This document shows, in pieces, positions 27,207-48,100 of a stretch of 61,794 bases of DNA. This DNA is from an uncultured Clostridium sp. (GTDB lineage Bacteria; Bacillota; Clostridia; TANB77; CAG-508). A program made the translations under genes and the position numbers. The stretch covers positions 1 to 61,794 of the forward strand of contig CANAUI010000005.1 of NCBI GenBank assembly GCA_947364715.1. The letters run 5' to 3'. How positions within the stretch are numbered: the stretch's first letter is position 1; each line of letters opens with the position of its first letter. Below the pieces are notes generated by a model. It made no database searches. It saw only the letters and a program-made list of their open reading frames with translations, and had not been told where the DNA came from.

Positions 27207-27237
27207 AAAAACACATCCATATAGATGTGTTTTTTTT
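27207..27237. terminator. Bidirectional rho-independent terminator marking the low-coordinate (3') border of the accessory locus
   Basis: AAAAACACATC-catata-GATGTGTTTTTTTT. Confidence 0.6.
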
Positions 27238-28915
27238 AGAATATTGTCATTCTAAATCCTATACTCCAGTATGATTGTATACTAGTATTATTACTTCTAC
27301 TATTTACATTTAGTTCAGAAGAAGCACTACTTTCAAATGAGCCCCCTCTTATAACACATGGTTGAGAATTTATATTTGAATTTTCTAAAGTCCATTCCCA
27401 AACATTTCCTGCTAAGTCAAATATATTTTGTTTTTCAAACACACTATTTGCTCCTGTTGATAATAATATAGCTCTTACTGAAGTTTTATCATAAGGTGCT
27501 TGTAACCATTGTGCCCCATTATTTAATGAATATAATGCATTTTCATTTACAATATTGTATATACTTGGTTGATAATTTCCCCAAGATGTACTATTATTGA
27601 TTAATTGAGATTGAATAGTTCCAATTTCTGTTCCTTGTACTACTCCTTTTGCTTCTATATATTTTTGTACTAAATCCCATTGAATACCAAACATTAAACT
27701 TCCTGAATATCCATTTGTGCTAGATTTACTTGCTAATGTTTGTGCTTCACTACAAGTTACCCAATTTATTGGATATTTATTTGGTTGTGACATTGGAACT
27801 AAGTCTGTAATAGCTGTATGTCCATTTCTCTTTATATTTGTTCCTGCTTCATATCTTGAAATATAGAATCCGCCATGTTGATAAACACTTTTTAACATTT
27901 TTTGTTTTAATTCCATATATCTACTACTTGATAGTCCTAAGGTTTCATCTGAGAAATATGTATCAGTTGCAGATGTTCCATTTCTATATATTGAAGTATA
28001 TGTATGTAAATCATCTTCAATTTTTTGATATTCTTGTTCTGTAAACTCTGTTATGCTTATTCCAGCTGTCGGATATACATTTGCAAGTTTTGGTACTTCT
28101 ATCCATACATATTCATTTTCATCTAAATCTTTAATAACTAAACCTGTTTCTAATGTTGTTCCTTCTACTTGAGCAAAGTTAGAATTTGGTAAAAATGGTC
28201 TTGTACCAGGTCCATTTGGTAAAATTCCTGCTCCCCCTATAATTTCATCATTTGCTTGATATGAATCAATACTTAAAGTAATATCCATTGCTGAAATAGC
28301 ATCTGGATTATCTACAAAATATTGTCCAACTATATATCCCCACTCTGTATCTAATTCATCATTATCTCCAGCCCATCTAGCTGTAACTTTTAAATATGCA
28401 TCATCTTTTGCTGGTACTTGCAAAGAATGTTCAATATTTAGTGTAAATGGAAATCTATCTGAATCATCTATTATTATTCCTTTTGATATGAGTTCTCCTG
28501 TTTCTGGATTTGATTCTAATATTGGATTTGTTATTGTTATATAATTTTCAGTTGTAGGTTGTTCACCTTCTGTTATTAATTCATAAGAAACTCCAACAAT
28601 TGATATTGCCTGTATTCGATAGCTTAAATCTACTAATGCTTCTCCATTATTTAAAATATCTACTTTAATAACTTGCTCTTCCATTTGTGGATATAATGTT
28701 GGAAATTCTATTCCTATAGGATTTTCTTTTTCTTCTCCATCTATATAATATTCCATATCCCATGAAGCTATATGTATATCTAAATTAGAATTTAATATTT
28801 TTGTATAGGCAAACCATGCAAATGTTGTCATAATAAGGGTAAAAATAAGTGCCACAGATTTTTTAAATTCATTTTTTTTATTTGATTTTCTACGTTTACG
28901 CAATATATTACTCAT
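27236..28915 (-). CDS. Secreted TasA/camelysin-class N-terminal module fused to an FGE-sulfatase (SUMF1)-like domain
   Basis: Basic N-region, H-region, then TFAWFAY (SipW-class signal) and IASWDMEYY. The C-terminal ~230 aa carry FYISRYEAG, FGIQWDLV, GNVWEWT, RGGSF and a terminal GFR. Confidence 0.7.
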   Translation of the reverse strand: MSNILRKRRKSNKKNEFKKSVALIFTLIMTTFAWFAYTKILNSNLDIHIASWDMEYYIDGEEKENPIGIEFPTLYPQMEEQVIKVDILNNGEALVDLSYRIQAISIVGVSYELITEGEQPTTENYITITNPILESNPETGELISKGIIIDDSDRFPFTLNIEHSLQVPAKDDAYLKVTARWAGDNDELDTEWGYIVGQYFVDNPDAISAMDITLSIDSYQANDEIIGGAGILPNGPGTRPFLPNSNFAQVEGTTLETGLVIKDLDENEYVWIEVPKLANVYPTAGISITEFTEQEYQKIEDDLHTYTSIYRNGTSATDTYFSDETLGLSSSRYMELKQKMLKSVYQHGGFYISRYEAGTNIKRNGHTAITDLVPMSQPNKYPINWVTCSEAQTLASKSSTNGYSGSLMFGIQWDLVQKYIEAKGVVQGTEIGTIQSQLINNSTSWGNYQPSIYNIVNENALYSLNNGAQWLQAPYDKTSVRAILLSTGANSVFEKQNIFDLAGNVWEWTLENSNINSQPCVIRGGSFESSASSELNVNSRSNNTSIQSYWSIGFRMTIF

Positions 28916-29088: not shown

Positions 29089-30351
29089 TTAATTTCCTCC
29101 TACCTCATCAGTTGCTGAACCTGGTTTGCTTAATCCTACATCAATTGTTAATGCACCACCTAGTGAAGCATAGTTGATACAGTCAACATCTTGACCTTCT
29201 AGCCATACATACATTCTCATATGAATATATTTACCTGGAGCTACTGAGAAGTCAGATGTTCCATCTTCAGCACTTTGTAATTGTATTGGGTCTGCTCCTA
29301 TACCTCTATTAGATGTTTGGTTTGTATATTGTCTTTTTAATCCATTTGCTGTTGCTCCTGTATCCCAATTATATATATCATCTATAGTTCCCTTTGTTAC
29401 AGAAGCTCCTGTTAAAGCATATGTAGGTATAGCACTATCTGCTGTAAATCTGTTTGTTGCTGGTATAGTAAATTCTGTTCTATCTGCATTTGAGAATGTT
29501 ACTTTATTATTGTTTTGTAATATGTAATTAACATGAGCAGCATATTTTGTTATTGCTGTACTAATATCTCCTTCTTGTGCACCACTTGCATTTGGTTCCC
29601 AAATAGCTACATCTGATATCTTACGAGCATCACCAGTAGTTGCAGCTAAGATTTGGTCTTGTGTTGGTGTTTTACTAACTAATGTGTTATCTTCTAAGTC
29701 AGGATCTTCATCATAAATAGCAAATGCTACTCTTAATGTATTTTGTAAACCTGTTGATTCTTTTGTAGTATCATTTAATACTATTGCTGAATTTCCTTCA
29801 AGTTGAAGTATGTCAGCTATATTTCCATCAATTGAAGTTTGAGCAGATGAGTTTTGTAAGAAGAAATCAATTGCATAATATCCTGCATTACTATCAGCAA
29901 CAAGTTTTGCAATAGTATTTAATTTCTTTCCTCCCTCAATTTCTCCTCTATACATATTGAAATCACTTAATCCAATACCTTCCCCAGTTTGTGCTGTTGT
30001 AGAAACTGGTAATAATTCACTTGGTACCAAGTTTGTACGTCCAGCATAAGGTTTTGCTAATGATCTCATTTGATCTGGGTCAGTAAGACCTAAGTCAGCA
30101 TTTGTTTGTCTAAAATACTCTATTGCATTATTTGATAAATCAATTTCATTTGCCCAGTTTAAAGCATCTAATGAAATTTGTAGACCTTCTGCTACATTTA
30201 CTCTACCTTCTAATCCACCTAATGTTACGTTTCTCTGTGTAGAAAACCATGCATATGTTGATACAATCAATAAGATTGCTGTAAATGCTACTAATAAAAT
30301 TAATGCATTTAATTTTTTTCTTGAGTTTCTTTTAATATTTTCTTCTCTCAT
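29089..30351 (-). CDS. SipW-signal (TYAWFS) secreted protein; probable major TasA/BsaA-like fibre subunit
   Basis: KKLNALILLVAFTAILLIVSTYAWFSTQ, matching the T[FY]A[YW]F[SN] signal class of TasA/CalY. RBS AAGGAG. Consensus promoter upstream of its two-gene unit and a strong terminator downstream. Confidence 0.7.
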   Translation of the reverse strand: MREENIKRNSRKKLNALILLVAFTAILLIVSTYAWFSTQRNVTLGGLEGRVNVAEGLQISLDALNWANEIDLSNNAIEYFRQTNADLGLTDPDQMRSLAKPYAGRTNLVPSELLPVSTTAQTGEGIGLSDFNMYRGEIEGGKKLNTIAKLVADSNAGYYAIDFFLQNSSAQTSIDGNIADILQLEGNSAIVLNDTTKESTGLQNTLRVAFAIYDEDPDLEDNTLVSKTPTQDQILAATTGDARKISDVAIWEPNASGAQEGDISTAITKYAAHVNYILQNNNKVTFSNADRTEFTIPATNRFTADSAIPTYALTGASVTKGTIDDIYNWDTGATANGLKRQYTNQTSNRGIGADPIQLQSAEDGTSDFSVAPGKYIHMRMYVWLEGQDVDCINYASLGGALTIDVGLSKPGSATDEVGGN

Positions 30352-30407: not shown

Positions 30408-31205
30408 TTATCTTTCATCTTGTGGTAGTTCATCTTCTTGCAATATGTGTTCTTCTGTAAGAGTCATATGCATTTTAATTTCTCCACCTATCAAATCATC
30501 TAAACATTCTGGGTCATCTCCCTCTACCCAAACTACAACTGTCCATTTATCAATATCACCTACTTTGAAGTTTTCTGTTAATTCTAACATAACAGTATCT
30601 TCATCTTTAAATGCTGTTGTTTCAGGCTCAGGTTTTCCTGTTTGTCTATTATTTTTTGCATAAACGATTTTTTCACCATTTTTAAAAACCATTACTCTAA
30701 TTGCTTCATCTACATTTTTTACAACATCATCTATTTTTATGGTTGTCCAATAATTTATAACATCTTGTCCCATATTTTCTGCATAAAATGTGTATGCTAT
30801 GTAATTTCTACCATTATGTGAGCCATTTCCTTCATTATCTATGTTTTCTGGTAACCAATTTATAGATATATCTGTAAAAAATTCAATGTCATCTGACCTT
30901 AAAAATGTTCTTGTATATTTATTTTCAGGCTCTTCATATATAACTAGCCCACTTTCTCTTCCATATTCACTATCTAGTGTTACTGTAAAATTTTCTCCTT
31001 TATAAAATATGGATAATACAATATATACATTAATTACAAGTAATATAATAAGTATTAAAAATATTTCAAAGGCAATTCGTCTTTTATTTTTTCTTTTTTC
31101 CTTTTTTGCTTTTTTTTCTAATTTTTGCCCTAATGTTGTTTCATTAATTTGTTCTTCTAGTGTTGGTGCATTTTGTAATTGTATATTTGTTTCTTCATTT
31201 GCCAT
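30408..31205 (-). CDS. TM-anchored paralog of the fibre subunit (TapA-like anchor/nucleator candidate)
   Basis: Lys-rich cytoplasmic N-terminus, one TM helix, no YAWF cleavage motif. C-terminal VVVWVEGDDPECLDDLIGGEIKM aligns with MYVWLEGQDVDCINYASLGGALTI of the 29089-30351 product. Confidence 0.5.
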   Translation of the reverse strand: MANEETNIQLQNAPTLEEQINETTLGQKLEKKAKKEKRKNKRRIAFEIFLILIILLVINVYIVLSIFYKGENFTVTLDSEYGRESGLVIYEEPENKYTRTFLRSDDIEFFTDISINWLPENIDNEGNGSHNGRNYIAYTFYAENMGQDVINYWTTIKIDDVVKNVDEAIRVMVFKNGEKIVYAKNNRQTGKPEPETTAFKDEDTVMLELTENFKVGDIDKWTVVVWVEGDDPECLDDLIGGEIKMHMTLTEEHILQEDELPQDER

Positions 31206-31346: not shown

Positions 31347-32045
31347 TTATGTATTTGACCTTATCATTGAGCTTGTTATTTTTACAGTTATTTCTATTGC
31401 TTTAGAAGGATTATTATTTTGATTTTGATAATATTCATAAGCATCTTTTCCAAATCTTGTATCTAATATGTCTTTTGCTAAATTTTCATCTTCTGTTCCA
31501 GTTCCTTGATAATCCCAACTAGATTTAAATTTGAAAGTTGCTCCAGACATTGGAGTTGTTGTATCATCTACATATTCTCCATCTAATCTAGTTCTATCAT
31601 AAGTATATTCTATTTTAAAAGGATATTTTGTATCATCTGCAAATATATTTACTGTATTCCCTTCAGTATGAATTATATTATTTTCTTCTAATTGGTCTAA
31701 TATTTCTCTACCAAAAATTTTTACAGAGGTTAACTCATAATTTATGCTTGTACTTGTTGTACTCATATTATATATGCGTACAATGTCTTCTCTATCAGGC
31801 ATTCCTGGATATAATTCATCTATTGTAAATGTAACATTTTCATCTAATACTTCTTTATCATCTACATAATATCTAATATCCCAAGGTGTTACATCAGCTT
31901 CTAATCCTTGAAGGTCAACTGGCGAATTTGCATTAAACCATGCATATGTATTTATTATTAATATTACAGAAAATGTCAAAATCAATAAAATTCTAAATGT
32001 CATACTTTGTTTTTTGACTCGTCTAAGTTCACGTAATATATTCAT
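31347..32045 (-). CDS. SipW-signal (TYAWFN) secreted TasA-like protein
   Basis: FRILLILTFSVILIINTYAWFNANSP then VTPWDIRYY. 232 aa. RBS GGAGG. Confidence 0.65.
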   Translation of the reverse strand: MNILRELRRVKKQSMTFRILLILTFSVILIINTYAWFNANSPVDLQGLEADVTPWDIRYYVDDKEVLDENVTFTIDELYPGMPDREDIVRIYNMSTTSTSINYELTSVKIFGREILDQLEENNIIHTEGNTVNIFADDTKYPFKIEYTYDRTRLDGEYVDDTTTPMSGATFKFKSSWDYQGTGTEDENLAKDILDTRFGKDAYEYYQNQNNNPSKAIEITVKITSSMIRSNT

Positions 32046-32105: not shown

Positions 32106-32822
32106 TTAAGTGTTATCCTCATCTTCTATATCTTCATCTATATATTCCTCAAATTCTTCTATGTCTTCTTCAACTTCTTCCATATCTTCATCTATTTCTT
32201 CGTCTATTTCTTCTTCATAATTTTCTTCATAAATATCTTCTTCTAATTCATCATATGTATTGGCAATTTTTCTTACTTTATGTTTTTTTGCTTTTTTTGG
32301 TGTATTAAATGCTACAAATACATTTAATACTAAAACAATAATTATAAAAAATACTGAATATATGTTAGTAGCTAAATCATATAATATTGTTAACAGAGCA
32401 GATTTATATTTTACAATACCATATATTTGTTCTTCTCTAATGTTAGGGTCTTCAAAACTGTCACTTTGTAAACCTTTTGCATGAAAAATTAAATCTCCAT
32501 TTTCTTCTTTATCAATTCCAATAACATTATGCATGATAACTCTGTCACCTAAATATACAATATCATCTCCAATTTTAATATCTTTAGGAGATATTTGTTT
32601 ACTTATAACAACTTCTCCAACTTGATATTCTGGCTCCATACTTCCTGTAATAACTCTAAAAATTCTATATCCACCTATTGATTTATTACTATTGCTTACT
32701 TTTTGTAAAACAATTACTAATGTCAAAAGTAAAGCTATTATTACAAGTACTTGATACAATATTACAAATATGACTTTTATTATTTTTTTTGGATTAATTT
32801 TTGGTCCATCATCTTTACTCAT
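32106..32822 (-). CDS. SipW-type (S26B) signal peptidase paralog 5, with long acidic C-terminal tail
   Basis: TGSMEPEY (Ser motif), IMHNVIG (His), AKGLQSDSFEDP in place of KGDNN. C-terminal TM then a ~55-aa D/E-rich tail. Confidence 0.75.
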   Translation of the reverse strand: MSKDDGPKINPKKIIKVIFVILYQVLVIIALLLTLVIVLQKVSNSNKSIGGYRIFRVITGSMEPEYQVGEVVISKQISPKDIKIGDDIVYLGDRVIMHNVIGIDKEENGDLIFHAKGLQSDSFEDPNIREEQIYGIVKYKSALLTILYDLATNIYSVFFIIIVLVLNVFVAFNTPKKAKKHKVRKIANTYDELEEDIYEENYEEEIDEEIDEDMEEVEEDIEEFEEYIDEDIEDEDNT

Positions 32823-32825
32823 AAT

Positions 32826-33446
32826 TTACTCCTCTACTTTATAATTATCTCTCAATTTCTTTATTTCATATTTTTTCCTTTTGATTTTTCTATTATTTAT
32901 CACATTTTCTCTAAAGTTAGCTAAAATACATATAATTACAATTAGAATAAATATATTTATAAATCCTGTTACATTTTGTATGTAATTAACTATTTTTCCT
33001 ATTTTAGGAATAACATATACCACTTTACCAAATATATCTTGTGTATTTACTGACTCTATATCTTCTACTTTATTATTATCCCCCTTAGTAATAAATTGTT
33101 TCTCATTTTTGTTTTTTACAATTTTTGAAATTCTATGTGATATTATTCTATCATCTTGCTTAAAAGTTATAATATCTCCTTTTTGTAATTCTTCATAATA
33201 ATAACTTTTTACAATTGCTAAATCATCTTTATAAAATGTTGGTTCCATACTTTCTGAAACTATATTAAACATATATATTCCAAAAATATGTGTTTTTTCT
33301 TCTATTGTTAACATTAAATTAACAATAAAAAGGAAGATTAAACTAATTAGTATAATAAATTTTATTATTTTTTTAGTTCTTTTTTTATTTTTTATTTTAT
33401 GAGAGATTTTTTTAACATCATATTCCAATTTTGTTCTCAGCTCCAT
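32826..33446 (-). CDS. sipW: SipW-type signal peptidase paralog 4 (canonical motifs)
   Basis: SESMEPTF, ISHRI, TKGDNNKVED. N- and C-terminal TM helices. Stop lies 3 nt before the next paralog's start. Confidence 0.85.
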   Translation of the reverse strand: MELRTKLEYDVKKISHKIKNKKRTKKIIKFIILISLIFLFIVNLMLTIEEKTHIFGIYMFNIVSESMEPTFYKDDLAIVKSYYYEELQKGDIITFKQDDRIISHRISKIVKNKNEKQFITKGDNNKVEDIESVNTQDIFGKVVYVIPKIGKIVNYIQNVTGFINIFILIVIICILANFRENVINNRKIKRKKYEIKKLRDNYKVEE

Positions 33447-35243: not shown

Positions 35244-35906
35244 TTAAGTTGTTGTTTCTTCTTCTGGTAGTATATATTGTGTAAATGTCATCATTGCTTT
35301 ATATTTTAAAGTAGTATGTAAATTATCTTCTTGTTGTTCTCCTCTAAATTGTGTATCAGCTTTATTATCCATACTATTTTCTTCACCATCATTCCATCTA
35401 AATAAGATTCTATATTCTCTTTTCTTTTCTCCTACACTATTTACTTCATCTATTGGATTAATAATACCTTTTATTTCTGAAGTTTGATTTGTTTCTATTA
35501 TAGTCTTTGTTCCATCAACTATATCCCATATCTCGTATCCATAAATCTCAAAATCTTCTAATGGTGTTTCATTTAATTGTTCTATAGAAAATTCATATTC
35601 AAAAGTCACATCTACATCTGTATAATCAATTAACATTTCGAAATATCCAGTTTGCCCTGGTACTAATATATCAGGATTTATATTATCACTTCTTGTAAAA
35701 ATTGGCTCTATAACTTCATTTAGTGTTTCTGTATCATGTATAACCATATCATTTACTTTAACTAACCATCTTTTGATATTAGTATTATATGTAGTATCAA
35801 CTTGTTCAAAATATCTTGCATAGGTTTTTTGTATAAAAAAGATAGTAATAATTAAAGAGATTAAACATAATATTTGAATAATTTTAATCTTATTTTTTTC
35901 TTTCAT
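35244..35906 (-). CDS. Secreted protein with class-2 SipW-like signal (TYARY)
   Basis: IIQILCLISLIITIFFIQKTYARYFEQ then RWLVKVND. C-terminal FRWNDGEENSMDN motif is shared with the other cargo proteins. Confidence 0.55.
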   Translation of the reverse strand: MKEKNKIKIIQILCLISLIITIFFIQKTYARYFEQVDTTYNTNIKRWLVKVNDMVIHDTETLNEVIEPIFTRSDNINPDILVPGQTGYFEMLIDYTDVDVTFEYEFSIEQLNETPLEDFEIYGYEIWDIVDGTKTIIETNQTSEIKGIINPIDEVNSVGEKKREYRILFRWNDGEENSMDNKADTQFRGEQQEDNLHTTLKYKAMMTFTQYILPEEETTT

Positions 35907-35928: not shown

Positions 35929-36612
35929 TCATTTTTTTCTTCTAAAAATTCTAAAGGCTACATATATTGTTAATGGCAATATTCCACAAAAATAGAAAAT
36001 ATATTTATTATTTAGTAACATACAAATTAATGATAAAATATACATTTTTGTTTGAACAACACCATTAATTTGCTCTGCTTTTATAACAGGGTCTTTTGTA
36101 GTCCCAATGGCAATTCCTTGTGTTTGAAAGCTTTTTTGACCATTTACTTCTTTTATATCTATCACTCTATGTGTAACAAGCTTTCCTTGCATTGCTCCTA
36201 CTTCTCCTTGATATGTTACATCATCACCAATTTGAATTTTATTTGGGTCTACTTCTTTAACAAGTATAACATCACCAATTTGATATTTAGGAATCATACT
36301 TCCTGTTTGTACTCTAAATACCCTAAATCCTAAAAATGATTCTTCATTATTTGTTACTTTTTGTACTACTATGATTATAGAAATAAATATGACAATACAT
36401 GTTAATATTTGGGTAAATATTTTCCATATAATTTTTAAACCTTTACTAGCAAATCTTCCTTTTCTTTTTTGTTCTGCATTTTTGGTATTTTTTTGTTGAT
36501 TATTTTTTATTTTGTCTTCACTTTTTTCAGTAACTTTTTTATTACTTTTTTCCTCTTTGTTTATAATATTGTTACTTTCTTTTTCTTCTCTTTTGTCATT
36601 GATTTTTTTCAT
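35929..36612 (-). CDS. SipW-type signal peptidase paralog 3, with Lys-rich N-terminal extension
   Basis: TGSMIPKY, VTHRVI, QGIAIGTTKDP. About 60-aa K/E/N-rich cytoplasmic N-terminus. The start codon abuts the stop of the upstream gene (36612/36613). Confidence 0.75.
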   Translation of the reverse strand: MKKINDKREEKESNNIINKEEKSNKKVTEKSEDKIKNNQQKNTKNAEQKRKGRFASKGLKIIWKIFTQILTCIVIFISIIIVVQKVTNNEESFLGFRVFRVQTGSMIPKYQIGDVILVKEVDPNKIQIGDDVTYQGEVGAMQGKLVTHRVIDIKEVNGQKSFQTQGIAIGTTKDPVIKAEQINGVVQTKMYILSLICMLLNNKYIFYFCGILPLTIYVAFRIFRRKK

Positions 36613-37734
36613 TTATTTTAACCTCACTTCTTTTGCTTGTATCATATATTTTTCAATTCTTTCTTTAAATCTATCTTCTATTGGTTTTAAAGAAATTATT
36701 TTTTTGGTTTTCATCATTAAAATCTTTTCTGAAATTAATTTATTAATGTCTTTTTCTGTCATATCAGGATTTAATTCTATAATCCTTTCAATCATGGCAT
36801 CTGTTAGTTCTTTTGCCATTTTATTATCTTCTAATGCTGATTTTGCTTTTCTTTTTAAGGTATTACTATCATCTGTTTTTTTGAAGATAGAATATAGTAA
36901 AAATATGTCTTCATCTACTAATTCTTTTATCATTCCTTTTTCTTCATATTGACTATTTTCATTTATTGTTTTGTCTTTTAATTCCATTTGCTCATTTAGA
37001 TAATTCCATAGTTTTACAGCATACTGAAAATTAACATTTTTTAACAAAACATTTGTCATTTTTAATGGTGATTTTACATATGTTGCTTTTTTTGCAACTA
37101 ATATTTGATAAACTTCAGTCTGTTTTAACATTTTTAATGAATTTGTTATGTTTGCTATTTTTTCTGATGTTTTATCTGCCTTTGTTATTCCTGTTATTCT
37201 TTCAGAATCATATTCCATTTTTATATTAATTTTTTCTCTACCTAATTTAATATCTGCTTGGTAATTTGCTCTTTGATGACTTTTTCCTTTGTATTCTTCA
37301 TCTTTTTCTTTTCCTCTTATATATATAAAGTCTTCTATTAATTTAATTAAAGTATATAAAAATCTATTTTCATAATTAAGAAAGGTTTCTTCTTTATATG
37401 CATTTAAAATCTTTTTTGGAATTACTTCTCCAGTTTGTTGATTATACTTATCCACAAGATTTACATTTTTTGATAAATGTTTTACACTTTCTACTGTTAC
37501 TTTTTTTATTAATTCGATTTTTATAATTTCTTCTTCTGTTATAATATTTTTTATTTCTTTTGTTAATGCTTTTTCTAAATATGGAATGGTAAATTCAACC
37601 ATGTTTATCCATTCATCATTTTCTACAACATGACTTTTATCTACATCCATTATTAATTTTGAATCAATTTTATTAAGAAATTTTGTTGAATTTTCCTTTT
37701 CCATATTTGCAAATCTTACAATATTTAAGTCCAT
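36613..37734 (-). CDS. Cytoplasmic protein of unknown function, partner of the McrB-like NTPase
   Basis: RBS GGAGGAG before the ATG at 37734 (the track start at 37755 is a TTG inside the repeat). 373 aa, no TM. Contains YENRFLYTLIKLIEDF. No PD-(D/E)xK motif recognised. Confidence 0.5.
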   Translation of the reverse strand: MDLNIVRFANMEKENSTKFLNKIDSKLIMDVDKSHVVENDEWINMVEFTIPYLEKALTKEIKNIITEEEIIKIELIKKVTVESVKHLSKNVNLVDKYNQQTGEVIPKKILNAYKEETFLNYENRFLYTLIKLIEDFIYIRGKEKDEEYKGKSHQRANYQADIKLGREKINIKMEYDSERITGITKADKTSEKIANITNSLKMLKQTEVYQILVAKKATYVKSPLKMTNVLLKNVNFQYAVKLWNYLNEQMELKDKTINENSQYEEKGMIKELVDEDIFLLYSIFKKTDDSNTLKRKAKSALEDNKMAKELTDAMIERIIELNPDMTEKDINKLISEKILMMKTKKIISLKPIEDRFKERIEKYMIQAKEVRLK

Positions 37735-37745
37735 TTTCTCCTCCG

Positions 37746-37853
37746 AAGTTGCCAAAAGGGACGTGTTTATTTGGCAACTTTTATAAATTTTTAAAATTTA
37801 CCTTATATCATTTTACAGAAGTTGCCAAATAGACACGTCCCTTTTGGCAACTT
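37746..37853. repeat. 35-bp inverted repeat pair flanking a 38-bp AT-rich spacer
   Basis: 37746-37780 AAGTTGCCAAAAGGGACGTGTTTATTTGGCAACTT versus the reverse complement of 37819-37853: 34/35 identical. Each arm is itself palindromic at its ends (GTTGCCAAA...TTTGGCAAC). Confidence 0.85.
37802..37828 (-). promoter_or_regulatory. Candidate extended -10 promoter inside the inverted-repeat cassette, facing the downstream genes
   Basis: Minus-strand TTGGCA (37823-37828), 15 nt, TGaTATAAG (37802-37810). Confidence 0.35.
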
Positions 37854-37915
37854 TGGCGACTTTGGCAACGCTGGCGACTCTGGCGACTTTTGGCAACCTT
37901 GACAACCTTGGCAAC
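37844..37915. repeat. Eight tandem 9-bp units YTGRCRAC (TTGGCAAC/TTGGCGAC/CTGGCGAC/TTGACAAC)
   Basis: Unit starts at 37844, 37853, 37862, 37871, 37880, 37890, 37899 and 37908 (spacing 9,9,9,9,10,9,9). Locally much more GC-rich than the surroundings. Lies between the NTPase stop (37933) and the IR cassette. Confidence 0.85.
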
Positions 37916-37932
37916 TTTTGGAAATTTATCAA

Positions 37933-39486
37933 TTAAGACATCTTTTTAAGTCTTAATAAAAATTCTATACATTCACTCATTTTGCCTTTTCCAAAATTTT
38001 TATCTAAGAAATCAATATATCCATCAATTTCATCTCTAATTAATGTTAAGTTTAATCCTTCAAATTTTCTTAATACTTTTTTTGCCATGAAATAATCTAC
38101 TGCTTCTGTTTCGTCTCCTCCACATGCTACATATACTGGCACAAATTTTCTCATATGTTTTACAATACGGTTACCAAATGCAACTCTAAAATGTTTGATT
38201 GTATAATCATCCATATCTTCTATCTTTTTCAGAGTTGATGGTGATATTGCATAATCTGTCATTGCTTTTTCAAATAGTCCATTTAAATATGAATAATTTA
38301 CATCAAGAGCATCTACATCGTCTGGTTCAAATGCTATACCTTTTTCATTAATATCTATAGGCATTGCTCTATCATATACCTTATCTGTTACCATAAATGT
38401 TGAGTCATCATTATTAATTGTTCCTATATACCATGCATTAGGTGGAATTTGTAGTTTTCCTTTTATTAATTTTTTTGGGTCAGTTGGCCATGAACTTTGT
38501 ACTATTTCAATTTTCCAATCTTTTGTACTGTGCATTTCTAGAATAGATAACATTTCTGCAAAATAATATTCCACACGTGCTAAGTTCATTTCATCAAGTA
38601 TTACTGTATATATTTCGTCTGTATATCCTGATTCATATAAATATGCTAAAAAGTCTGTTTCATTAAACTTTTTGGTAAATTCATTTAAATATCCAAAGAT
38701 ATCTGTTCTATCTCTCCAAGAGGGTTGTACAGATGCAACACATGATGGATGTTTTACAAAGTTACCCCATGCTAGTGATATAGATGTTTTACCAGTACCA
38801 GAAATACCTTGTAAAATAACAAGTTTTGTTGAGGCAATTGCTGATACAAATAGTCTAATCATTTTTTCACTATAATATAATCTTAATTTGCTTGCAGCAA
38901 AATGTCTAAACATATAACAGAATTCTGGTAATGTAAAATTATTACGATAATCTTTTTGTTTATATTTTGCAAATTCTTCGTCTAACATTGTTAATTTAGA
39001 GAATCTACTTTGACTATTTGGGTCAATTTGTTCTTCATCATTAGATTCTGCTTGTGTAGCCCCCATTCCAGCTCTCTCTAGTCCTGTACTAATTCCATTT
39101 GGATTTACACCTAATTCTGGTGTTTTCATAGATAATAATTTTAATTTTTCATCTACTAATTCTTCTACTTGTCCATTTAATGTATCAATTTGTTTTAATA
39201 ATTCTTCTTGATTAATAATCTTTTTTCTCCATTTTATATGTCTTTTTAAGAAAAATAAAATTATGCCAGCAATTCCACCAATAATAATAAACATACATAT
39301 AATTGCTATTCCTGTTAATAACCATTCTGATACATTAAAATCATTTGCATAATGTTTAATAATTCCCCAATACTCTGGTATATTAAATATATTTACAATC
39401 CCATTCCATAATCCACCAAATATTTCTTTAATTCCAGAAAAAAACTGGTTTAAAAATTCAAATAAAAATCTTCCATATGTTTCCAT
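37933..39486 (-). CDS. Membrane-tethered McrB/COG1401-family AAA+ NTPase
   Basis: One TM helix (LLTGIAIICMFIIIGGIAGIILFFL) and a coiled coil (EELLKQIDTLNGQVEELVDEKLKLL). Walker A GISGTGKTS, Walker B/signature ILDEMNLARVEYYFAEMLSILE, GTINNDDSTFMVTDKVYDRA. Confidence 0.8.
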   Translation of the reverse strand: METYGRFLFEFLNQFFSGIKEIFGGLWNGIVNIFNIPEYWGIIKHYANDFNVSEWLLTGIAIICMFIIIGGIAGIILFFLKRHIKWRKKIINQEELLKQIDTLNGQVEELVDEKLKLLSMKTPELGVNPNGISTGLERAGMGATQAESNDEEQIDPNSQSRFSKLTMLDEEFAKYKQKDYRNNFTLPEFCYMFRHFAASKLRLYYSEKMIRLFVSAIASTKLVILQGISGTGKTSISLAWGNFVKHPSCVASVQPSWRDRTDIFGYLNEFTKKFNETDFLAYLYESGYTDEIYTVILDEMNLARVEYYFAEMLSILEMHSTKDWKIEIVQSSWPTDPKKLIKGKLQIPPNAWYIGTINNDDSTFMVTDKVYDRAMPIDINEKGIAFEPDDVDALDVNYSYLNGLFEKAMTDYAISPSTLKKIEDMDDYTIKHFRVAFGNRIVKHMRKFVPVYVACGGDETEAVDYFMAKKVLRKFEGLNLTLIRDEIDGYIDFLDKNFGKGKMSECIEFLLRLKKMS

Positions 39487-39601: not shown

Positions 39602-40648
39602 TTATATGAATAGCACATTATTGAACATTTCTTTATGAGTTTTTATTTCTCTACACAATGCCAATTTTTGAGGTACAATTACTATTTTAAACATTTTTAA
39701 TTTTTCTACATCTTCTATACTTTTTACCATATTATCTAATGTAATTGTAAAATTGTATCCTTTTTTTATGTATTCCAATACTATTTTTTGATTGTGAATA
39801 TAATCAGAATATAAAATATTTAAATTAATTTTATCTTGTAATGCTTGATTTGCAAGAATAGATAAAATACTATCTAATTTTTGTTTCTTTTTTAATAAAG
39901 TACTTGCAAATTCTGCAATATATGTATCTACAAAATTCCCATTTATAATGTCTGAAATAACTACCAAACTTAGCAATATATATTCTACTTTTAACTTGTC
40001 TTCTGCTATAATTCCTTCGTGATATACTTTTTCTATGGCTGTTTGACTATATTGCATTGGCATTTTTACCTTTTGTTTCAAAGTAGCAAAATAAATTTCA
40101 TCATTATTTTTGCTATTTTCAAATTCTAATACAAATTCATCTGTATCAAATTTATCTAAAAATATTTCTTTTTCAAGCATGTCATGTTTTATATCTTCAT
40201 ATAGTTTTTTTTCTACACTTTGTGAAATATCTATTTTAAATAGTTTTTTTGCTGTTTCTACCATTTTAGCAATAATTTCTTTTATATTATCAATTGTTTT
40301 AAAGTTTTCTACATTTCTAACATTGTCAAAAAACAAAATATATGAAAATAATTCTTTTAAATTATGAATTTTGTTTAAATTGTTTCTCTTCTCGTCTAAA
40401 GTCTCTGCCTCTTCTTCACATTTTTTCATTAAAATATCTTCTTTATATTCTAGTTCTTCTAATATTCTTAAATAAAATGCTCTGGCAGGTGTATCTGTAT
40501 TTTGAATATTATAATATCTTGCATTAATATATGTTTTTAAATATTCATCTACTAATTCTTCATCATATTCTTTTACTAATAATGTCTTTATATATTTTTT
40601 TATTTTCTTTTTTGTAAATGTTATATATGTATCCATTAAATTATTCAT
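39602..40648 (-). CDS. Cytoplasmic protein of unknown function (348 aa)
   Basis: No TM or signal segment, helical K/E-rich text. No motif recognised. Confidence 0.45.
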   Translation of the reverse strand: MNNLMDTYITFTKKKIKKYIKTLLVKEYDEELVDEYLKTYINARYYNIQNTDTPARAFYLRILEELEYKEDILMKKCEEEAETLDEKRNNLNKIHNLKELFSYILFFDNVRNVENFKTIDNIKEIIAKMVETAKKLFKIDISQSVEKKLYEDIKHDMLEKEIFLDKFDTDEFVLEFENSKNNDEIYFATLKQKVKMPMQYSQTAIEKVYHEGIIAEDKLKVEYILLSLVVISDIINGNFVDTYIAEFASTLLKKKQKLDSILSILANQALQDKINLNILYSDYIHNQKIVLEYIKKGYNFTITLDNMVKSIEDVEKLKMFKIVIVPQKLALCREIKTHKEMFNNVLFI

Positions 40649-40732: not shown

Positions 40733-41305
40733 TTATATAATTTGTTCTGCATTAATATCTAATTTTATATATTCAATTAAATCAGAATATTCTGCATTTG
40801 TATCATTTTCTTTTGGAAATGTTACTTTAATAACATAATTATCTGTCAAATCTTCTCCTTGTATCATTTGTGATGGTTCTATTATAATTTCTTTGTAATG
40901 TGTACCATCTTCATCTGTAATTATATCTTGTTGTGTGGTTAAAATTTCACCATTTTTTTCTATTATATATTCTAATGGTAAATTTGTTGTTGTTGTTATT
41001 TTTAAATTATATTCTAAATCTGTTTCTGCTCTTTTTCTTATTGTTCCTTCTTCATTTGCTTCAAAATTTGATACTGAAAAAGAATAGTCAAATGAATTAT
41101 TTGATGGATATACATCTTCTATAATTATACTTGCTGTTTGAAAATCATCTTTAAACATCCAAAAAGCAATATCTACGTCTTTTTGTGACATTGCCATTGT
41201 TTCATATCTTGATAATGTATTTTTTATAAAAATAATAGCTATTATAATAATTGCTATTAAAAAAAGTATTATAATACTTTTTTTTAATTTTTTCTTATCC
41301 AACAT
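40733..41305 (-). CDS. Secreted protein with class-2 SipW-like signal (TLSRY)
   Basis: RBS GGTGAG before the ATG at 41305. KKSIIILFLIAIIIIAIIFIKNTLSRYET then DIAFWMF. Overlaps the 3' end of SipW paralog 2. Confidence 0.55.
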   Translation of the reverse strand: MLDKKKLKKSIIILFLIAIIIIAIIFIKNTLSRYETMAMSQKDVDIAFWMFKDDFQTASIIIEDVYPSNNSFDYSFSVSNFEANEEGTIRKRAETDLEYNLKITTTTNLPLEYIIEKNGEILTTQQDIITDEDGTHYKEIIIEPSQMIQGEDLTDNYVIKVTFPKENDTNAEYSDLIEYIKLDINAEQII

Positions 41306-41819
41306 CTTTTTTCTCACCTATTTTTTCTTTATATGAAATCAATAATATAAATAATATAATTGTTATTACTATTGATATAATAACATATTTATCTGAAAAT
41401 ACTTTTTTCCAGACTTCTACATTATTAAAAATGTATACAGATTTACCTATAACTTGACTTTTTTCTATTGGCTCATCCTGAATATTATTATAATCACCTT
41501 TTGTAATAATCATATCTCCATCTATTTTTTCTATTCTATGTGTAATTAGTACATTATCTTGCTTATATGTTATAATATCTTTTTCCTTTATTTCATCACC
41601 TATTTTAATTATTATAATATCACCTTTTTTTATTGTTGGTGACATACTACCAGTTTCTGTACTAAGTATAGAAAATCCAAATATATTTATATATTCTTTA
41701 TTTTGTATGTTTAATTGTATAAATCCCCATATTGCAAGAATAGCAATGACACTTAATACAAAAATTATTAGATTTATAATTACTTTTTTAATAATTTTTA
41801 ATATTTTATCCGTTTTCAT
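41295..41819 (-). CDS. sipW: SipW-type signal peptidase paralog 2 (canonical motifs)
   Basis: TGSMSPTI, ITHRI, TKGDYNNIQDEP. N- and C-terminal TM helices. Overlaps both neighbours. Confidence 0.85.
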   Translation of the reverse strand: MKTDKILKIIKKVIINLIIFVLSVIAILAIWGFIQLNIQNKEYINIFGFSILSTETGSMSPTIKKGDIIIIKIGDEIKEKDIITYKQDNVLITHRIEKIDGDMIITKGDYNNIQDEPIEKSQVIGKSVYIFNNVEVWKKVFSDKYVIISIVITIILFILLISYKEKIGEKKDVG

Positions 41820-42450
41820 CGCTTATCACTTCTCCTGTATATTGTTTTAAATTAATTTCTAATGGTATAGATATTTTTGCATTTTCTATTTTTCCTAATT
41901 CTGAATCAGTTTCATTATTTTCTTCTAAATTTTCCCACTCAAAATATAACCTTACATAATTTATATATTTATCATTTATCTTTTCTAGTGGAATTATTGC
42001 TTTATGTTCATTACTTTCATTATTTGTATATATATTATCATTTAAAACTTGTTCTGTTTCTTCATTTTTTTTAAAATAATTTTCTACATTTACTAATTTA
42101 AAATTAGCAGTTGTTACCATGTCTAATTTTATGTTAAGTGTGTATAAAACTGATACATCTGTATTTGTTGGGTCTATAGCAATTTCAAAATATGCTTGTG
42201 ACCCTGGTGCTATTTTTTGACTTTTAACATGTTCAGAATTTATATATATAAGGTTGTCCTCTGTCATGTTAAAAGTCAAATTTTCGTCACCTGAAGATAG
42301 GTCTGATTCATTTACTTTTATAGACCATACTCCTAATAAATTTCTATATTCCCCTTCTAATTTGTCTTTATATAAAGCATACATATTAGTTATTCGGAAT
42401 ATAGTTATTATTAGCATTATTAATACTAGAATTCTTAATAATTTCTTCAT
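41806..42450 (-). CDS. Secreted protein with class-2 SipW-like signal (MYALY)
   Basis: LRILVLIMLIITIFRITNMYALYKDK then GVWSIKVNESD. C-terminal YFEWENLEENNETD motif. Confidence 0.55.
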   Translation of the reverse strand: MKKLLRILVLIMLIITIFRITNMYALYKDKLEGEYRNLLGVWSIKVNESDLSSGDENLTFNMTEDNLIYINSEHVKSQKIAPGSQAYFEIAIDPTNTDVSVLYTLNIKLDMVTTANFKLVNVENYFKKNEETEQVLNDNIYTNNESNEHKAIIPLEKINDKYINYVRLYFEWENLEENNETDSELGKIENAKISIPLEINLKQYTGEVISDENG

Positions 42451-42453
42451 TTA

Positions 42454-43461
42454 CTATTCCTCTTTTGATGATTTTGTAGCTCTTGGTTTACGAGTACTTG
42501 TGGCTGTAGCTGTTGATGTTTTTCTTGTTGTTCCTGTTTTTGTTGCTGTACTAGCTTTTGTAGTTGTTCCTGTTCTTTTTGCTGTACTAGTTTTTGTAGT
42601 TGCTCCTGTTCCTTTTGCTGTACTAGTTTTTGCAGTTGCTCCTGTTCTTTTTGTTGTACTAGTTTTTGCAGTTGCTCCTGTTCCTTTTGCTGTACTAGTT
42701 TTTGTAGTTGTTCCTGTTGTTTTTGTTGTACCAGTTTTTGTAGTTGTTCCTGTTTTTCTTGCTGTGCTAGTTTTTGCAGTTGTTCTTGTTTTAGTATTTG
42801 TTCTTGTAGCTGTATTTGTTTTTGGACTTGTTTTTCTAGTTTTTACAACTGGCTCTTCATATTCTTCCTCGTCATATTCCTCTTCTTCATATTCTTCTTC
42901 ATCATAATATTCTTCTGATTCAATTTCTATTGCATTTTTCTTCTTTTGCTTGTTAAGATATTTAATTTCCATAACTAATTCAAATACTTCTTGTAAGAAT
43001 AGTAATAATGATACAACTACTATACAGAATAAATATCCCCATTTAGATTCTAATATATTTAATATATATCCCCAACCTTCTATAACAATTGTATCTTCAA
43101 CTTTTCCTATAAAATAGTCACTTGCATAACTTTCTTCATCATCTACAATATATACATTATGTCTTCCTTGTTGAGTTTTTGCTTGTAATGTTGTATTTAT
43201 AACTTCATATTCTGAACTATTCAGTACTTTATACATGAATACTTCATCTCCAATTTGTACATTTTTGTCATTTGTTTCTTTTATTAATAATATAGACCCT
43301 TGTTTATATTCAGGCTCTAATGAATCATCTGTAACTATATATATTGTGTATTCTCCAATTACACTATTGTTATAATCATTATATGATAATAATAAAACTG
43401 TAACTGTAATAGCAATAATCGCATATATTACAAATAATATAGTTCCTAGTACTTTTTTCAT
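42454..43461 (-). CDS. Divergent SipW-like paralog 1 with long acidic plus Thr/Lys-repeat C-terminal tail
   Basis: N-terminal TM, DDSLEPEY (Ser motif with M to L), GRHNVY in place of THR(I/V), no KGDNN. Second TM, then EEYYDEEEYEEEEYDEEEYEE and ~130 aa of (T/A)KTSTAKxTGxT repeats. Start taken at the second ATG (43461, RBS GGAAGAG). Confidence 0.55.
   Translation of the reverse strand: MKKVLGTILFVIYAIIAITVTVLLLSYNDYNNSVIGEYTIYIVTDDSLEPEYKQGSILLIKETNDKNVQIGDEVFMYKVLNSSEYEVINTTLQAKTQQGRHNVYIVDDEESYASDYFIGKVEDTIVIEGWGYILNILESKWGYLFCIVVVSLLLFLQEVFELVMEIKYLNKQKKKNAIEIESEEYYDEEEYEEEEYDEEEYEEPVVKTRKTSPKTNTATRTNTKTRTTAKTSTARKTGTTTKTGTTKTTGTTTKTSTAKGTGATAKTSTTKRTGATAKTSTAKGTGATTKTSTAKRTGTTTKASTATKTGTTRKTSTATATSTRKPRATKSSKEE
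42500..42800. repeat. In-frame 36-bp tandem repeats (at least 7 units) encoding the Thr/Lys-rich tail
   Basis: Plus-strand units such as gttgctcctgttccttttgctgtactagtttttgca recur head-to-tail with few substitutions. Confidence 0.8.
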
Positions 43462-43521
43462 TTTTTCTCTTCCTTGCATTTTTTATTTAGGTTTTTATAT
43501 GGTTTTGCCTATAAACCTTTT

Positions 43522-45120: not shown

Positions 45121-48100
45121 TTATGGTGTAATTATGAATGATTTTCTAATAGATTGTATTAATGTATTATGATAATATGCTTTAAATACTAATTTATATT
45201 CACCTGTACTAATACCTTCTTTAATTTCCTTTTTAAAGGCTATTGTTTCAATATTTTCTCCTTCTTCTGGCATTTGATGTTCTTTTTTCTCCATAATTAC
45301 ATATTCTTTAGAGCCCTCTGCTGTAGTTAATCCTTGACCTTCATATTCTTCTGGAGTTTTCCATTCTGTACCATCAGGGTTTTCTAAATAATCCTTTAAA
45401 TCAATTGGTGTATATGTAATTTGATTATATATATTTGTTCCATCATCTTCTTGAGTATATGTGTCATTTCTTTTATATAATTCTACTCTTATATTTGTTT
45501 CATCTGTAGGTGAGCCGACTTTTACTGTTAAGTCTAAACCTCTACTTCCATCAAGGTTTTTTCCAGTATCTTTATTGATAACCCTAGTACCATCTACTGA
45601 TTCTACACCTGCTAATCCTAATAGTTTATTAATAAATGTTATATAAATTTCTTGTTCTTGTTTTATTTCTCCTCCATAATATGAGCCATTATCTGATGCA
45701 AAGAAATAAATTTTTGCAGTATATAATCCAGCTGGCACACTACTTTGACTTACTTCTAGTCTATATTGATTTTGTATTGTTGCTAAACCATCTGCAAGTG
45801 GAATTCTAATAACTCCATCTGCTCCTACTCCATATACTTTTGATGTTGTTTCATCTATTACTCTAAAGTTTTGTATTGCTGGTATTCTAATTCTTTCTCC
45901 ATGTTCATCTACAATTTCAACTGCCATACCTGTAAATTTATCATAATATTTTGTATCTTGAATTATTGCTTCATCTTGTGTTGTCTGTTCTTTAATACTT
46001 GCATCAAACTTAAATGGAATTGCTAAATTCTCATATACAGAATATGATGTTTTACCATCAGTTGTTTCAACTGTTTCAGACATAATTGCATTTTGATTAT
46101 ATAAGTCATATACTAAGTCTTTTTCTCCATTGTCATATTTCATAGTTCCATTTGAATTTCTTAATTCTAAATAAGTATCTTGTTCTAATTGATTTGTATT
46201 TATATTAGAATCTTTGAAATCTATTGAAACATCATATTTTTCTAGTACATATCCATTTCCTTGTGAGTCATTATGATAATATAGACTGTTATTATTTGAA
46301 TATTTATTAGTTGTATCTGTTCCACCCATTTCTACAAAGTCAGATAAATTATATAAGTATCTTGTGTTTTCAGTTGTATTATCAATTGAATCATAATCTG
46401 TATTACTTGTTGTTTGATAATAATATACTTTATTAACATTATCACCTTGTCCATAGTCTCTTATTGTAATTCCTGTGCCTTGTGGTAAAGGCATAGATGT
46501 TGATAATACTCTATAATCTCCTGATTCATAAATATCTGCTTGTCTTATAATTCCAGATTTATATAATACATAAGTAATATCAATTTTACTATCTGTTGTG
46601 TAATTTAGTTTTGTATTACTACTATTTGTAAATCTTGGTATATAGTTTTCAACATATTGTTCATATAATGATTGAATATTTACTGCTATAACAACCTTAA
46701 ATGTGTTTCCAACACTTGCATCTTCTCCTGATTTTGCTTTTCCTGTTAATACAATATTTATATATCCTAAATCTTTTGTTTCAGAAACATTTACAGAATT
46801 AAATATATTAAATCTTAATGTTCCAGCAGTATTTGAATTATCTGTTTTAAATATTGTATCTCCATCAAATGAGCCATTTTCATCTGTATAGATATTTGTT
46901 TCACCTGATTGTAACCATCCAGAATTTATTGTTTGCATTGTTAGTCCAAAAGTATTATTTGCATTTTCACTATATGTTGGTATTGTTAATTTATTTATTA
47001 AATTAACATCTGTATTTAATGCATTTGTACTTATTCTATCAATACTAAATATTGTTCCATCATATGTTGCATTATTTACAAATTTATTAAAGTCTAATGT
47101 TAATTCTGCTGTTGCATCTGTTCCATAAGTTGATGCAATAACTTGTGTATTATAGTTTACAATATCTGCATTTATAATCCAATCATAATATGTTCCATAA
47201 TCTGTAACCTCTATCACTTGTGGTATTGCTGTATTTGAATCATTTACAATATTTGTATAGAATCCATCAACTGTAATATCATGATTTGCTTTATGTCTTC
47301 CTTCTATATATGTACCATTTGCAAACATATTTGTTGTAACTGCTCCATTATAATTTGGTGCATAAATATCATATTCTTTGTTTCCTGTACTTCTATTAAA
47401 TCTATACATTCCAAAGAATGCCATACCATTTATATCTCCCCAAATATCTTCACTATTTCTTTCTGTTAAATCTCCTTCTGCTTTGGCAAATATTAGGTTT
47501 ACACCTTCTAAACTATATAATCTGTTGTCAACATTTTGTGTAACATTATTATCTGTAATTTCTACTGTTTGTTTTGTTGTTGTACCATCTTCATTTGTTA
47601 ATAAGCTTTCAAATCCTCCAACCATGTTAAATCCTCTTTGTGTGTATAAAGTTGAATTATCTAGTAAAGCTAATCCATTTGTAATTCTATTTAAAGTATA
47701 ACTTGTTTTTGTATAATAATTGTTTTTATCTTGTGCACCTAATAACTCTAAATATGAATTTTGTATAGATACTTTTCCTGTTCTTTCTATTGAAGTGATT
47801 GTATAGCTTTGTGATGAACTTCCAAAGTCTTTTAATTCTACTGTTGATTTGTCTTTTCCATCGTTTGTTGTAGGTAAATAGGTTGTTCCTTTTCCAGCCC
47901 CAAAGATTTTTCCAGTAAATCTGATTGGAGATTCTTCACTATTGTCCATTAAAATATGTGTATCTCCATAGACACTTATTGTATTGTAATCTTCGTTAAT
48001 TGAATTTCCTGAGCCATATATATTTCCTTTAATTACAATATTTCCGACTGTAAAAGTATCATCTGTTACAGCATCTTTACCAATATTAACATTTGTTGTT

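Follow-up and report, generated by a model that had tools for sequence, protein, structure and literature searches.

The 61,794-nucleotide stretch of DNA analyzed here (the window; contig CANAUI010000005.1 of an uncultured Clostridium sp.) carries two adjacent genes that encode a 517-residue relative of the GTPase McrB and a 373-residue partner with a DUF2357 domain, both annotated as "hypothetical" in public databases. The pair is probably a CoCoPALM-type module, that is, a membrane-tethered derivative of the McrBC GTPase machine that lacks a nuclease and resides in a gene cluster for the SipW-dependent biogenesis of surface proteins or fibers. Membership of the locus in the CoCoPALM class itself, a class named in section 7 of Bell et al. 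(eLife 2024, PMC11090510), is very likely. The original prediction, made from the window sequence without database searches, had proposed that a motor of the McrB type now serves an envelope process instead of DNA restriction; this idea is already in print in the lines that Bell et al. devote to CoCoPALM (PMC11090510), and the lack of a nuclease in the partner, the linkage of the pair to SipW-type signal peptidase genes, and the fusion of a neighboring protein, p348, to SipW argue for such a function. New here are the nuclease-free partner with a long β-hairpin, the synteny statistics from 80 species, a minimal module, and the fusion of SipW to its putative adaptor.

The 517-residue protein is a membrane-tethered GTPase of the McrB family

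The GTPase gene and the elements of its product are located as follows.

37933..39486, minus strand: McrB-like, NxD-type AAA+ GTPase homolog of 517 residues, a single-pass membrane protein (phmmer, profile search, hhalign, PADLOC, and conservation)
39247..39315, minus strand: transmembrane helix, residues ~58-80, with the basic stretch KRHIKWRKK on its cytoplasmic side (Kyte-Doolittle maximum 3.0)
39127..39225, minus strand: heptad or coiled-coil stretch, residues ~88-120 (75% I/L/V/M at the a/d positions, one Gly only)
38347..38883, minus strand: AAA+ core that aligns to Escherichia coli McrB, residues ~202-380, with Walker B LDEMN (phmmer, hhalign, and conservation)
38782-38808, minus strand: Walker A motif GISGTGKTS, within the AAA+ core
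38407-38415, minus strand: NxD signature N358-N-D360-D (GTINNDDST), within the AAA+ core

The McrB-family motifs recognized in the original prediction are borne out by database searches. The sole phmmer match among PDB sequences is E. coli McrB (6hz4, E=4.6e-5, residues 203-375), a profile built from 28 relatives of the GTPase retrieves only McrB chains from the PDB, and the family alignment matches E. coli McrB in hhalign with a probability of 97.2% over 166 columns (E=4.5e-11). Pfam AAA_5 is matched by 24 of the 28 relatives; for the window protein, Pfam gives nothing at E<=0.1 beyond a weak match to PhoH. The top match in a defense library is PADLOC PDC-M26A (1.3e-36), which covers the AAA+ core alone (residues 202-322). 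In 150 representatives clustered at 50%, the consensus that follows sensor 1 is GT[AI]NxD[DE]ST, where x is N, K, T, R, Q, H, S, I, or V, and N358 and D360 are invariant. This consensus places the family in a shortened NxD branch rather than with the canonical McrB NxxD signature.

Relatives of the GTPase were found in at least 594 species-level genomes when one genome of each species was scanned, and the best 80 of the at least 594 loci, which share 49-89% identity with the window protein, were analyzed. These 80 genomes are gut metagenome-assembled genomes labeled Bacilli, "Tenericutes", Erysipelotrichaceae, and Clostridia. Across the 80 species, 130 positions of the GTPase are at least 97% conserved, including Walker A G227-S235, Walker B D298 and E299, N358, D360, and R373. 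Judged from its sequence, the 517-residue protein is catalytically active and strongly constrained.

The N-terminal 160 residues, which have no domain match, comprise an aromatic-rich exoplasmic segment, the transmembrane helix, the heptads, and a linker, residues 121-160, that is poorly conserved (0.42 versus 0.86 for the AAA core). Immediately C-terminal to the helix there are six to seven Lys or Arg residues versus zero to one before it, and the same is observed in relatives with one transmembrane helix. By the positive-inside rule, this asymmetry gives an N-out/C-in topology with a cytoplasmic GTPase domain. The replacement of the DNA-reader domain by a transmembrane helix and a coiled coil, as read earlier from the letters, stands; the heptads are present but short, spanning just four to five repeats.

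The N terminus of CoCoPALM proteins is described as FtsB-like (PMC11090510, in the section that names the class), which raises the alternative that the transmembrane helix and coiled coil target the GTPase to the septum as a division or sporulation factor, with the link to SipW being secondary. One of the 28 relatives has a weak DivIC match (E=0.012), and the host carries sporulation and germination genes. The window protein has no DivIC or FtsB match in Pfam, no division genes are nearby, and the conserved neighbors are SipW and its substrates, and a septal role is highly improbable.

The partner carries DUF2357 and lacks a nuclease

The partner gene and its features are the following.

36613..37734, minus strand: McrC-like partner of 373 residues, with a DUF2357 N-terminal domain, a long β-hairpin, and a helical C-terminal half, nuclease-free (Pfam, alignment, and AlphaFold2)
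37255..37614, minus strand: DUF2357 (PF09823) match, partner residues 41-160 (29.1 bits versus a gathering score of 23.3)
37183..37296, minus strand: predicted 18+18-residue β-hairpin, partner residues 147-184 (AlphaFold2; predicted local distance difference test, pLDDT, of 88-93 for the block)

The longest open reading frame (ORF) of the partner opens at a TTG at 37755, yet the ATG at 37734 sits behind a GGAGGAG ribosome-binding site. DUF2357, which is the N-terminal domain of McrC according to Bell et al. (PMC11090510, in the part consulted), scores 36-53.7 bits in orthologs of the partner, and precomputed PF09823 annotation is present on 240 of 240 partner homologs among the matches listed. 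Residues W42, L87, L110, Y121-E122-N123, L129, P223, T227-N228, F236, and L242 are invariant in an alignment of 36 species. The same alignment contains neither a conserved D...(D/E)xK motif nor any invariant Asp, scans of family libraries returned no nuclease family for the partner, and PADLOC returned no match.

A first AlphaFold2 model, calculated from 38 close homologs, was too poor to use (pLDDT 52.6); a profile search widened the alignment to 150 sequences for a second one. The second model (pLDDT 74.4) has a confident hairpin at residues 147-184, followed by helices and one short hairpin at residues 255-264; the C-terminal half is helical, without a long coiled coil. No PDB entry matched this model in Foldseek at E<=1e-3, nor was a nuclease fold recovered, the top matches, TolC and capping protein, being spurious (TM-score, a measure of fold similarity, <0.2), and the profile of the partner family found only coiled-coil noise in the PDB. 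The absence of PD-(D/E)xK that the original prediction had noted by eye thus extends to the 36-species alignment and to the predicted fold. The hairpin at residues 147-184 is, by analogy with McrC, a candidate "finger" that may engage the GTPase ring. The most conserved stretch of the partner (residues ~64-125) is modeled at low confidence, and this segment may become ordered only upon binding.

Orthologs of the partner in Clostridia are longer (683-821 residues) and carry a K/E/A-rich helical C-terminal tail of ~350 residues composed of KEKAKEKERIAKEKA-type repeats, which the window partner lacks. This tail, visible for example in locus L062 (11578-13830) and also in L063, L067, L075, L082, and L083, is probably a single α-helix or a coiled coil.

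The pair is linked to SipW-type signal peptidases in two classes of Bacillota

SipW was called with TIGR02228, the model for archaeal/ER-type signal peptidase I, at a cutoff of 51.85 bits. The signal peptidase paralogs of the window, the 348-residue protein p348, and the two further members of the conserved gene order, p265 and p420, are located as follows.

39602..40648, minus strand: conserved cytoplasmic protein of 348 residues (p348), immediately 5' of the GTPase gene (in 64 of the 80 loci)
42454..43479, minus strand: divergent SipW-like paralog 1, with a long C-terminal tail that is acidic and then T/K-rich (TIGR02228 38.1 bits, under the cutoff; NF046067 43 bits)
41295..41819, minus strand: SipW-type paralog 2 (TIGR02228 70.8 bits; Peptidase_S24)
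35929..36612, minus strand: SipW-type paralog 3, whose start abuts the stop of the partner gene (TIGR02228 71.3 bits)
32826..33446, minus strand: SipW-type paralog 4 (TIGR02228 106.7 bits)
32106..32822, minus strand: SipW-type paralog 5, the C-terminal tail of which is acidic (TIGR02228 58.8 bits)
30408..31205, minus strand: membrane-anchored protein of 265 residues (p265), which accompanies the p420 family in the minimal module (gene order in relatives)
29089..30351, minus strand: secreted protein of 420 residues (p420) with the SipW-type signal STYAWFS, of the minimal-module family (N-terminal motif)

Four of the five paralogs exceed the cutoff (58.8-106.7 bits). As the original prediction had it, the stop codon of the partner gene (36613-36615) is followed without a gap by the ATG of SipW paralog 3 at 36612. 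The ORFs of the relatives' loci were searched with the window's own proteins, and the partner adjoins the GTPase in 79 of the 80 loci, the exception being truncated by the end of its contig. Of the 80 loci, 77 have a SipW gene at a distance of at most 10 kb; among the 50 loci flanked by 5 kb or more on each side, 49 do. More distant relatives with one transmembrane helix (34-42% identity) keep the order p265-p420-(substrate)-SipW-GTPase-partner-SipW, and a minimal set p265-p420-SipW-McrB-McrC occurs in Clostridia (loci L062-L064, L067, L072, L078, and L083) and also in loci L087-L089.

Neither Pfam nor the PDB contains a relative of the p348 family, in which no known domain is recognized. In about ten species, p348 constitutes the C-terminal half of proteins of 650-756 residues, the genes of which lie directly 5' of the McrB-like gene (loci L056, L058, L066, L069-L071, L073, L074, L076, and L081; coordinates L056:7821-10001, L069:7842-9998, L073:8049-10001, L076:7953-10001, and L081:7938-9998). 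The N-terminal half of these fusions is a SipW peptidase in five of the five that were scanned (TIGR02228 64-70 bits, residues 11-158). In the fusion of L069, the p348-like part spans residues 360-662 (BLASTP E=5e-21), and the translation reads, in order, as a transmembrane helix, the catalytic SipW domain, a second transmembrane helix, a basic stretch, an acidic linker, and the p348-like domain. Among the present observations, the fusion of SipW to p348 provides the strongest indication that the cytoplasmic proteins of the module may work together with the signal peptidase.

An ordinary McrBC type IV restriction cassette, inserted by chance in a secretion locus, would account for the McrB-related GTPase core and for DUF2357 in the partner, and it is nonetheless next to excluded: a transmembrane helix takes the place of the DNA-binding domain, the signature is NxD and not NxxD, neither the motif nor the fold of a PD-(D/E)xK nuclease is found in the partner, the position within a SipW cluster is conserved in 80 species, and the base composition of the cluster is uniform. 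Given the adjacency of the two genes, their linkage to SipW, and the p348-SipW fusion in about ten species, the pair is not an inserted restriction cassette. Neither a bona fide McrC nuclease as the partner nor a life of the pair as a stand-alone defense island was found; in 80 species the pair stays in clusters of SipW and substrate genes, as it does at 34-42% identity. A horizontally inserted island was likewise considered and was rejected on the uniform G+C content over the cluster and the conserved synteny.

Comparison with known systems

CoCoPALM is described as a large clade of NxD McrB GTPases, the analysis of which is deferred; in the section that names it, the description runs to three sentences without analysis (PMC11090510). 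No follow-up paper was found in the literature, and membership could not be read from accessions, the class not being named in the text of the supplements of PMC11090510. Similar to the CoCoPALM proteins as described there, the window GTPase has NxD followed by D/E and an N-terminal transmembrane helix with a coiled coil, and it is accompanied by an adjacent McrC homolog with DUF2357 and by signal peptidase genes. McrC of CoCoPALM is usually fused to a coiled coil, whereas the coiled coil of the window partner is modest and long K/E/A tails are seen only in the Clostridia orthologs. Neither the SipW-p348 fusion nor a nuclease-free partner with a long β-hairpin is mentioned in those three sentences. 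CoCoPALM is thus, in that source, a named class without published analysis or experiment, and the fusion of SipW to the putative adaptor supplies a concrete protein-protein hypothesis for it.

CoCoNuT (CnuB/CnuC; PADLOC candidate PDC-M26) resembles the window locus in its NxD branch, its N-terminal coiled-coil fusions, and its McrC homologs, which often lack an active nuclease. The CoCoNuT GTPases are soluble proteins of 700-800 residues with long coiled coils, and the inactive McrC homologs are always paired with HEPN or other nucleases, as far as the relevant parts of PMC11090510 describe them. The window GTPase differs in being anchored by a transmembrane helix and in having short heptads and SipW neighbors. 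None of the cluster proteins that were scanned has a recognizable nuclease domain, so the locus lacks the nuclease that marks CoCoNuT.

The E. coli McrBC structures (PDB 6hz4, 6ut6, and 7vsr) share with the window pair an AAA+ GTPase core and a two-gene layout with an activator partner. The main differences are the NxD rather than NxxD signature, the transmembrane helix in place of the DNA-binding N-domain, and a partner without the PD-(D/E)xK nuclease of McrC; none of the three hallmarks of canonical McrBC (NxxD, a DNA-reader N-domain, and a PD-(D/E)xK McrC) is present at the locus. The tapA-sipW-tasA operon of Bacillus subtilis is reminiscent of the cluster in that it combines a SipW-type peptidase, dedicated substrates, and a membrane-anchored accessory protein, a layout comparable to p265-p420-SipW. 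Unlike that operon, the window has five SipW paralogs, a giant adhesin, and substrates without detectable similarity to TasA/Peptidase_M73. TasA fibers are not known to require an NTPase for their assembly, which is viewed as an extracellular process without an energy source.

ATPases of the MoxR/RavA type are chaperones whose targets are protein complexes at the membrane, not DNA. They belong, like the family of the window GTPase, to the Pfam clan or family AAA_5 and combine a ring NTPase with a dedicated partner; they form a different subfamily, and in contrast to them, the window locus has no VWA partner and has the McrB-specific NxD signature and a DUF2357 partner.

Proposed mechanism and competing explanations

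In the proposed model, the 517-residue protein would reside in the membrane with its short N terminus outside and with its coiled-coil stalk, linker, and NxD GTPase domain in the cytoplasm. A hexameric GTPase ring would form beneath the membrane, tethered by six transmembrane/coiled-coil stalks. The 373-residue partner would bind this ring through its conserved N-terminal region and long β-hairpin and stimulate the hydrolysis of GTP in the fashion of McrC on McrB, without a nuclease, and p348 would couple the ring to the SipW-type peptidases. The conformational change driven by GTP could then gate or power the cleavage, release, or polymerization of proteins with SipW-type signals, including the giant DUF285 adhesin. 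This functional model, a membrane-tethered GTPase ring that controls the SipW-dependent processing or assembly of surface proteins, is the likeliest of the roles considered, though it falls slightly short of being probable. The narrower proposal that the GTPase ring, the p348 adaptor, and SipW form one physical machine, in which GTP drives or gates SipW-dependent fiber assembly and the display of the giant adhesin, is more tentative still.

If true, the coupling of SipW to a conserved GTPase machine in the cytoplasm would revise the energy-free view of TasA/SipW-type fiber assembly. Such a machine would represent a previously unrecognized pilus or fiber biogenesis pathway of Gram-positive gut bacteria, powered by nucleoside triphosphates and derived from a domesticated restriction motor, and would be a clear case of the re-use of a restriction-enzyme motor in cell-surface biology. 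The carriers, at least 594 species-level genomes, are mainly uncultured gut Bacilli and Clostridia.

Several observations weigh against the model of a SipW-coupled GTPase ring. Members of CoCoPALM are known from sequence alone. Although the inspection of the partner for an McrC-like fold, as suggested in the original prediction, returned DUF2357, the partner family shows no relationship to E. coli McrC in hhalign (0.4%), so that the kinship of the partner with McrC, and hence the activation step, is drawn from DUF2357, the domain that the literature equates with the N terminus of McrC. The FtsB-like character of the N terminus is not reproduced by Pfam, which returns neither DivIC nor FtsB for the window protein and DivIC, weakly, for the single relative mentioned above. 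Co-occurrence with SipW, which the original prediction had suggested surveying together with TasA, was found in nearly all well-flanked loci; co-occurrence with TasA was not, since no TasA or Peptidase_M73 relative is detected in the p420 family or among the small substrates in Pfam or the PDB. The words "fibre" and "pilus" are therefore an assumption. One well-flanked, full-length locus, L044, has no detectable SipW. In locus L086 (2-8695), whose GTPase shares 37% identity with that of the window, p348, the GTPase, and a 324-residue partner lie directly behind a prophage lysis cassette (DUF859, holin, and M23/LysM endolysin). Relatives with two or four transmembrane helices occur as stand-alone pairs without SipW neighbors. 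Finally, the sister clade CoCoNuT is predicted to be defensive (PMC11090510, where the clade is treated).

The ORF that follows in L086 encodes a transmembrane segment and then a TYYKY motif; the contig is short and ends before any SipW could show. Locus L084 (two transmembrane helices, P0257) contains two GTPase genes; a 604-residue DUF2357-like partner follows the first, and an unmatched gene of 1141 residues follows the second. Locus L085 (four transmembrane helices, P0286) is an isolated two-gene module amid housekeeping genes. Membrane-tethered McrBC-like modules are thus broader than the SipW-linked clade.

In view of the defensive function predicted for the sister clade CoCoNuT/PDC-M26, a conflict-related role is retained as a rival. 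In such a membrane-associated conflict or defense system, the pair would, like CoCoNuT, sense infection or envelope damage and act via or together with secreted or surface proteins, and the SipW linkage would reflect surface remodeling or exclusion instead of routine fiber biogenesis. The PDC-M26A match, the inclusion of the predicted CoCoNuT defense systems in the NxD branch (PMC11090510, in the part consulted), the lysis cassette in front of the L086 pair, and the stand-alone modules with two or four helices are consistent with this role. The PADLOC match is, however, limited to the shared AAA+ core, the partner has no PADLOC match, and no nuclease or other toxic effector domain is recognized in the conserved core. 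Synteny is stable over two classes of Bacillota and conservation is very high, unlike in patchy defense islands, and no relative of the GTPase was found in 2.9 million viral contigs (IMG/VR). Taken together, a defense function is unlikely.

A role in quality control or clearance is rather less likely again. The GTPase would then be an AAA+ unfoldase that pulls cleaved signal peptides, precursors that escaped cleavage, or the long low-complexity cytoplasmic tails of SipW paralogs out of the membrane and keeps a heavily loaded secretion site clear. The cytoplasmic GTPase domain beside the membrane would be well placed for this task, the AAA_5 relatives MoxR and RavA are chaperones, and the cluster encodes five SipW paralogs, some with long acidic or T/K-rich cytoplasmic tails, as well as at least seven signal-anchored substrates, one of more than 5500 residues. 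Rings of the McrB family are, on the other hand, plugged by McrC and do not thread substrates, as is known from the E. coli McrBC structures, and clearance overlaps with the model of GTP-controlled SipW processing, from which it differs in the output step alone.

The surrounding gene cluster

The window has a G+C content of ~25% and carries germination, sigma-factor, sporulation, and housekeeping genes; its source is a spore-forming bacterium of the Bacillota. A single minus-strand cluster of uniform base composition extends from ~27.2 kb to the right-hand edge of the window, with the GTPase/partner pair in its middle. It comprises a giant DUF285-repeat protein, the five SipW-type paralogs, at least seven signal-anchored proteins, and the GTPase with its partner. 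At least seven cluster proteins open with basic residues, which are followed by a hydrophobic segment and then by an aromatic motif (such as STYAWFS, NTYAWFN, TTFAWFA, or KTYARYF). In addition to p265 and p420, the following cluster proteins were assigned.

45121..61746, minus strand: giant DUF285-repeat surface protein of more than 5541 residues at the head of the cluster, reaching the window edge (DUF285 1.1e-56, six stretches)
41806..42450, minus strand: 214-residue protein with a signal anchor and NMYALYK, 3' of SipW paralog 1 (sequence)
40733..41317, minus strand: 194-residue protein with a signal anchor, 3' of SipW paralog 2 (sequence)
35244..35906, minus strand: 220-residue protein with a signal anchor and KTYARYF, 3' of SipW paralog 3 (sequence)
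31347..32045, minus strand: 232-residue protein with the signal motif NTYAWFN (sequence)
27236..28915, minus strand: 559-residue protein with the signal TTFAWFA and a C-terminal FGE-sulfatase-like domain (domain scan)

The giant protein occupies the same position in relatives, and its homologs elsewhere begin with a signal anchor and a TY(F/S)xxY-like motif. In p420, the (S/T)(T/S)(Y/F)AWF motif at the N terminus is kept across species, and the match to TIGR04088 reaches only E=0.11; the resemblance to TasA is confined to this signal motif. The neighbors of the pair are SipW peptidases and proteins with SipW-type signals, and not demonstrated TasA homologs; the label "TasA-like", used in the original prediction, was dropped because the p420 family has no TasA or PDB relative.

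In SipW paralogs 1 and 5, a long tail of low complexity is predicted to be cytoplasmic; the tail of paralog 1 is E/Y/D-rich and continues into ~130 residues of T/K/G/A repeats, and the plus-strand ORF at 42254-42907 is an antisense reading of this repeat. The C terminus of the 559-residue protein resembles a sulfatase-type formylglycine-generating enzyme (FGE) at E=6.4e-5, slightly under the Pfam cutoff, an unusual cargo for such a cluster. A 539-residue protein (33464-35083, minus strand) is highly charged and helical, has no transmembrane segment or family match, and is found in 22 of the 80 related loci, often elsewhere.

The intergenic repeat and the left end of the window

The GTPase and partner genes of the window are separated by a G+C-rich repeat element (37735-37932) that is specific to this strain. 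It consists of about ten tandem units of 9 nucleotides (TTGGC[AG]AC-like) and an inverted repeat with arms of 54 nucleotides, and all exact GTTGCCAAA copies of the window fall within it. As RNA, the element has a folding energy of -73.7 kcal/mol (z = -8) and extends at the 3' end into the ribosome-binding site of the partner. It is absent from the relatives L001 and L004 (89% identity), in which the gap measures 36-113 nucleotides, and was not found in JGI metagenomes. It could represent either a small palindromic insertion or a hairpin that controls translation.

Near the left end of the window, the ORF at 2382-3743 (minus strand) resembles, from its translation, a large serine recombinase, apparently without the N-terminal catalytic part. 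A small antitoxin-like ORF (1921-2301) adjoins it, and the two may be what is left of a mobile element that has no connection with the cluster.

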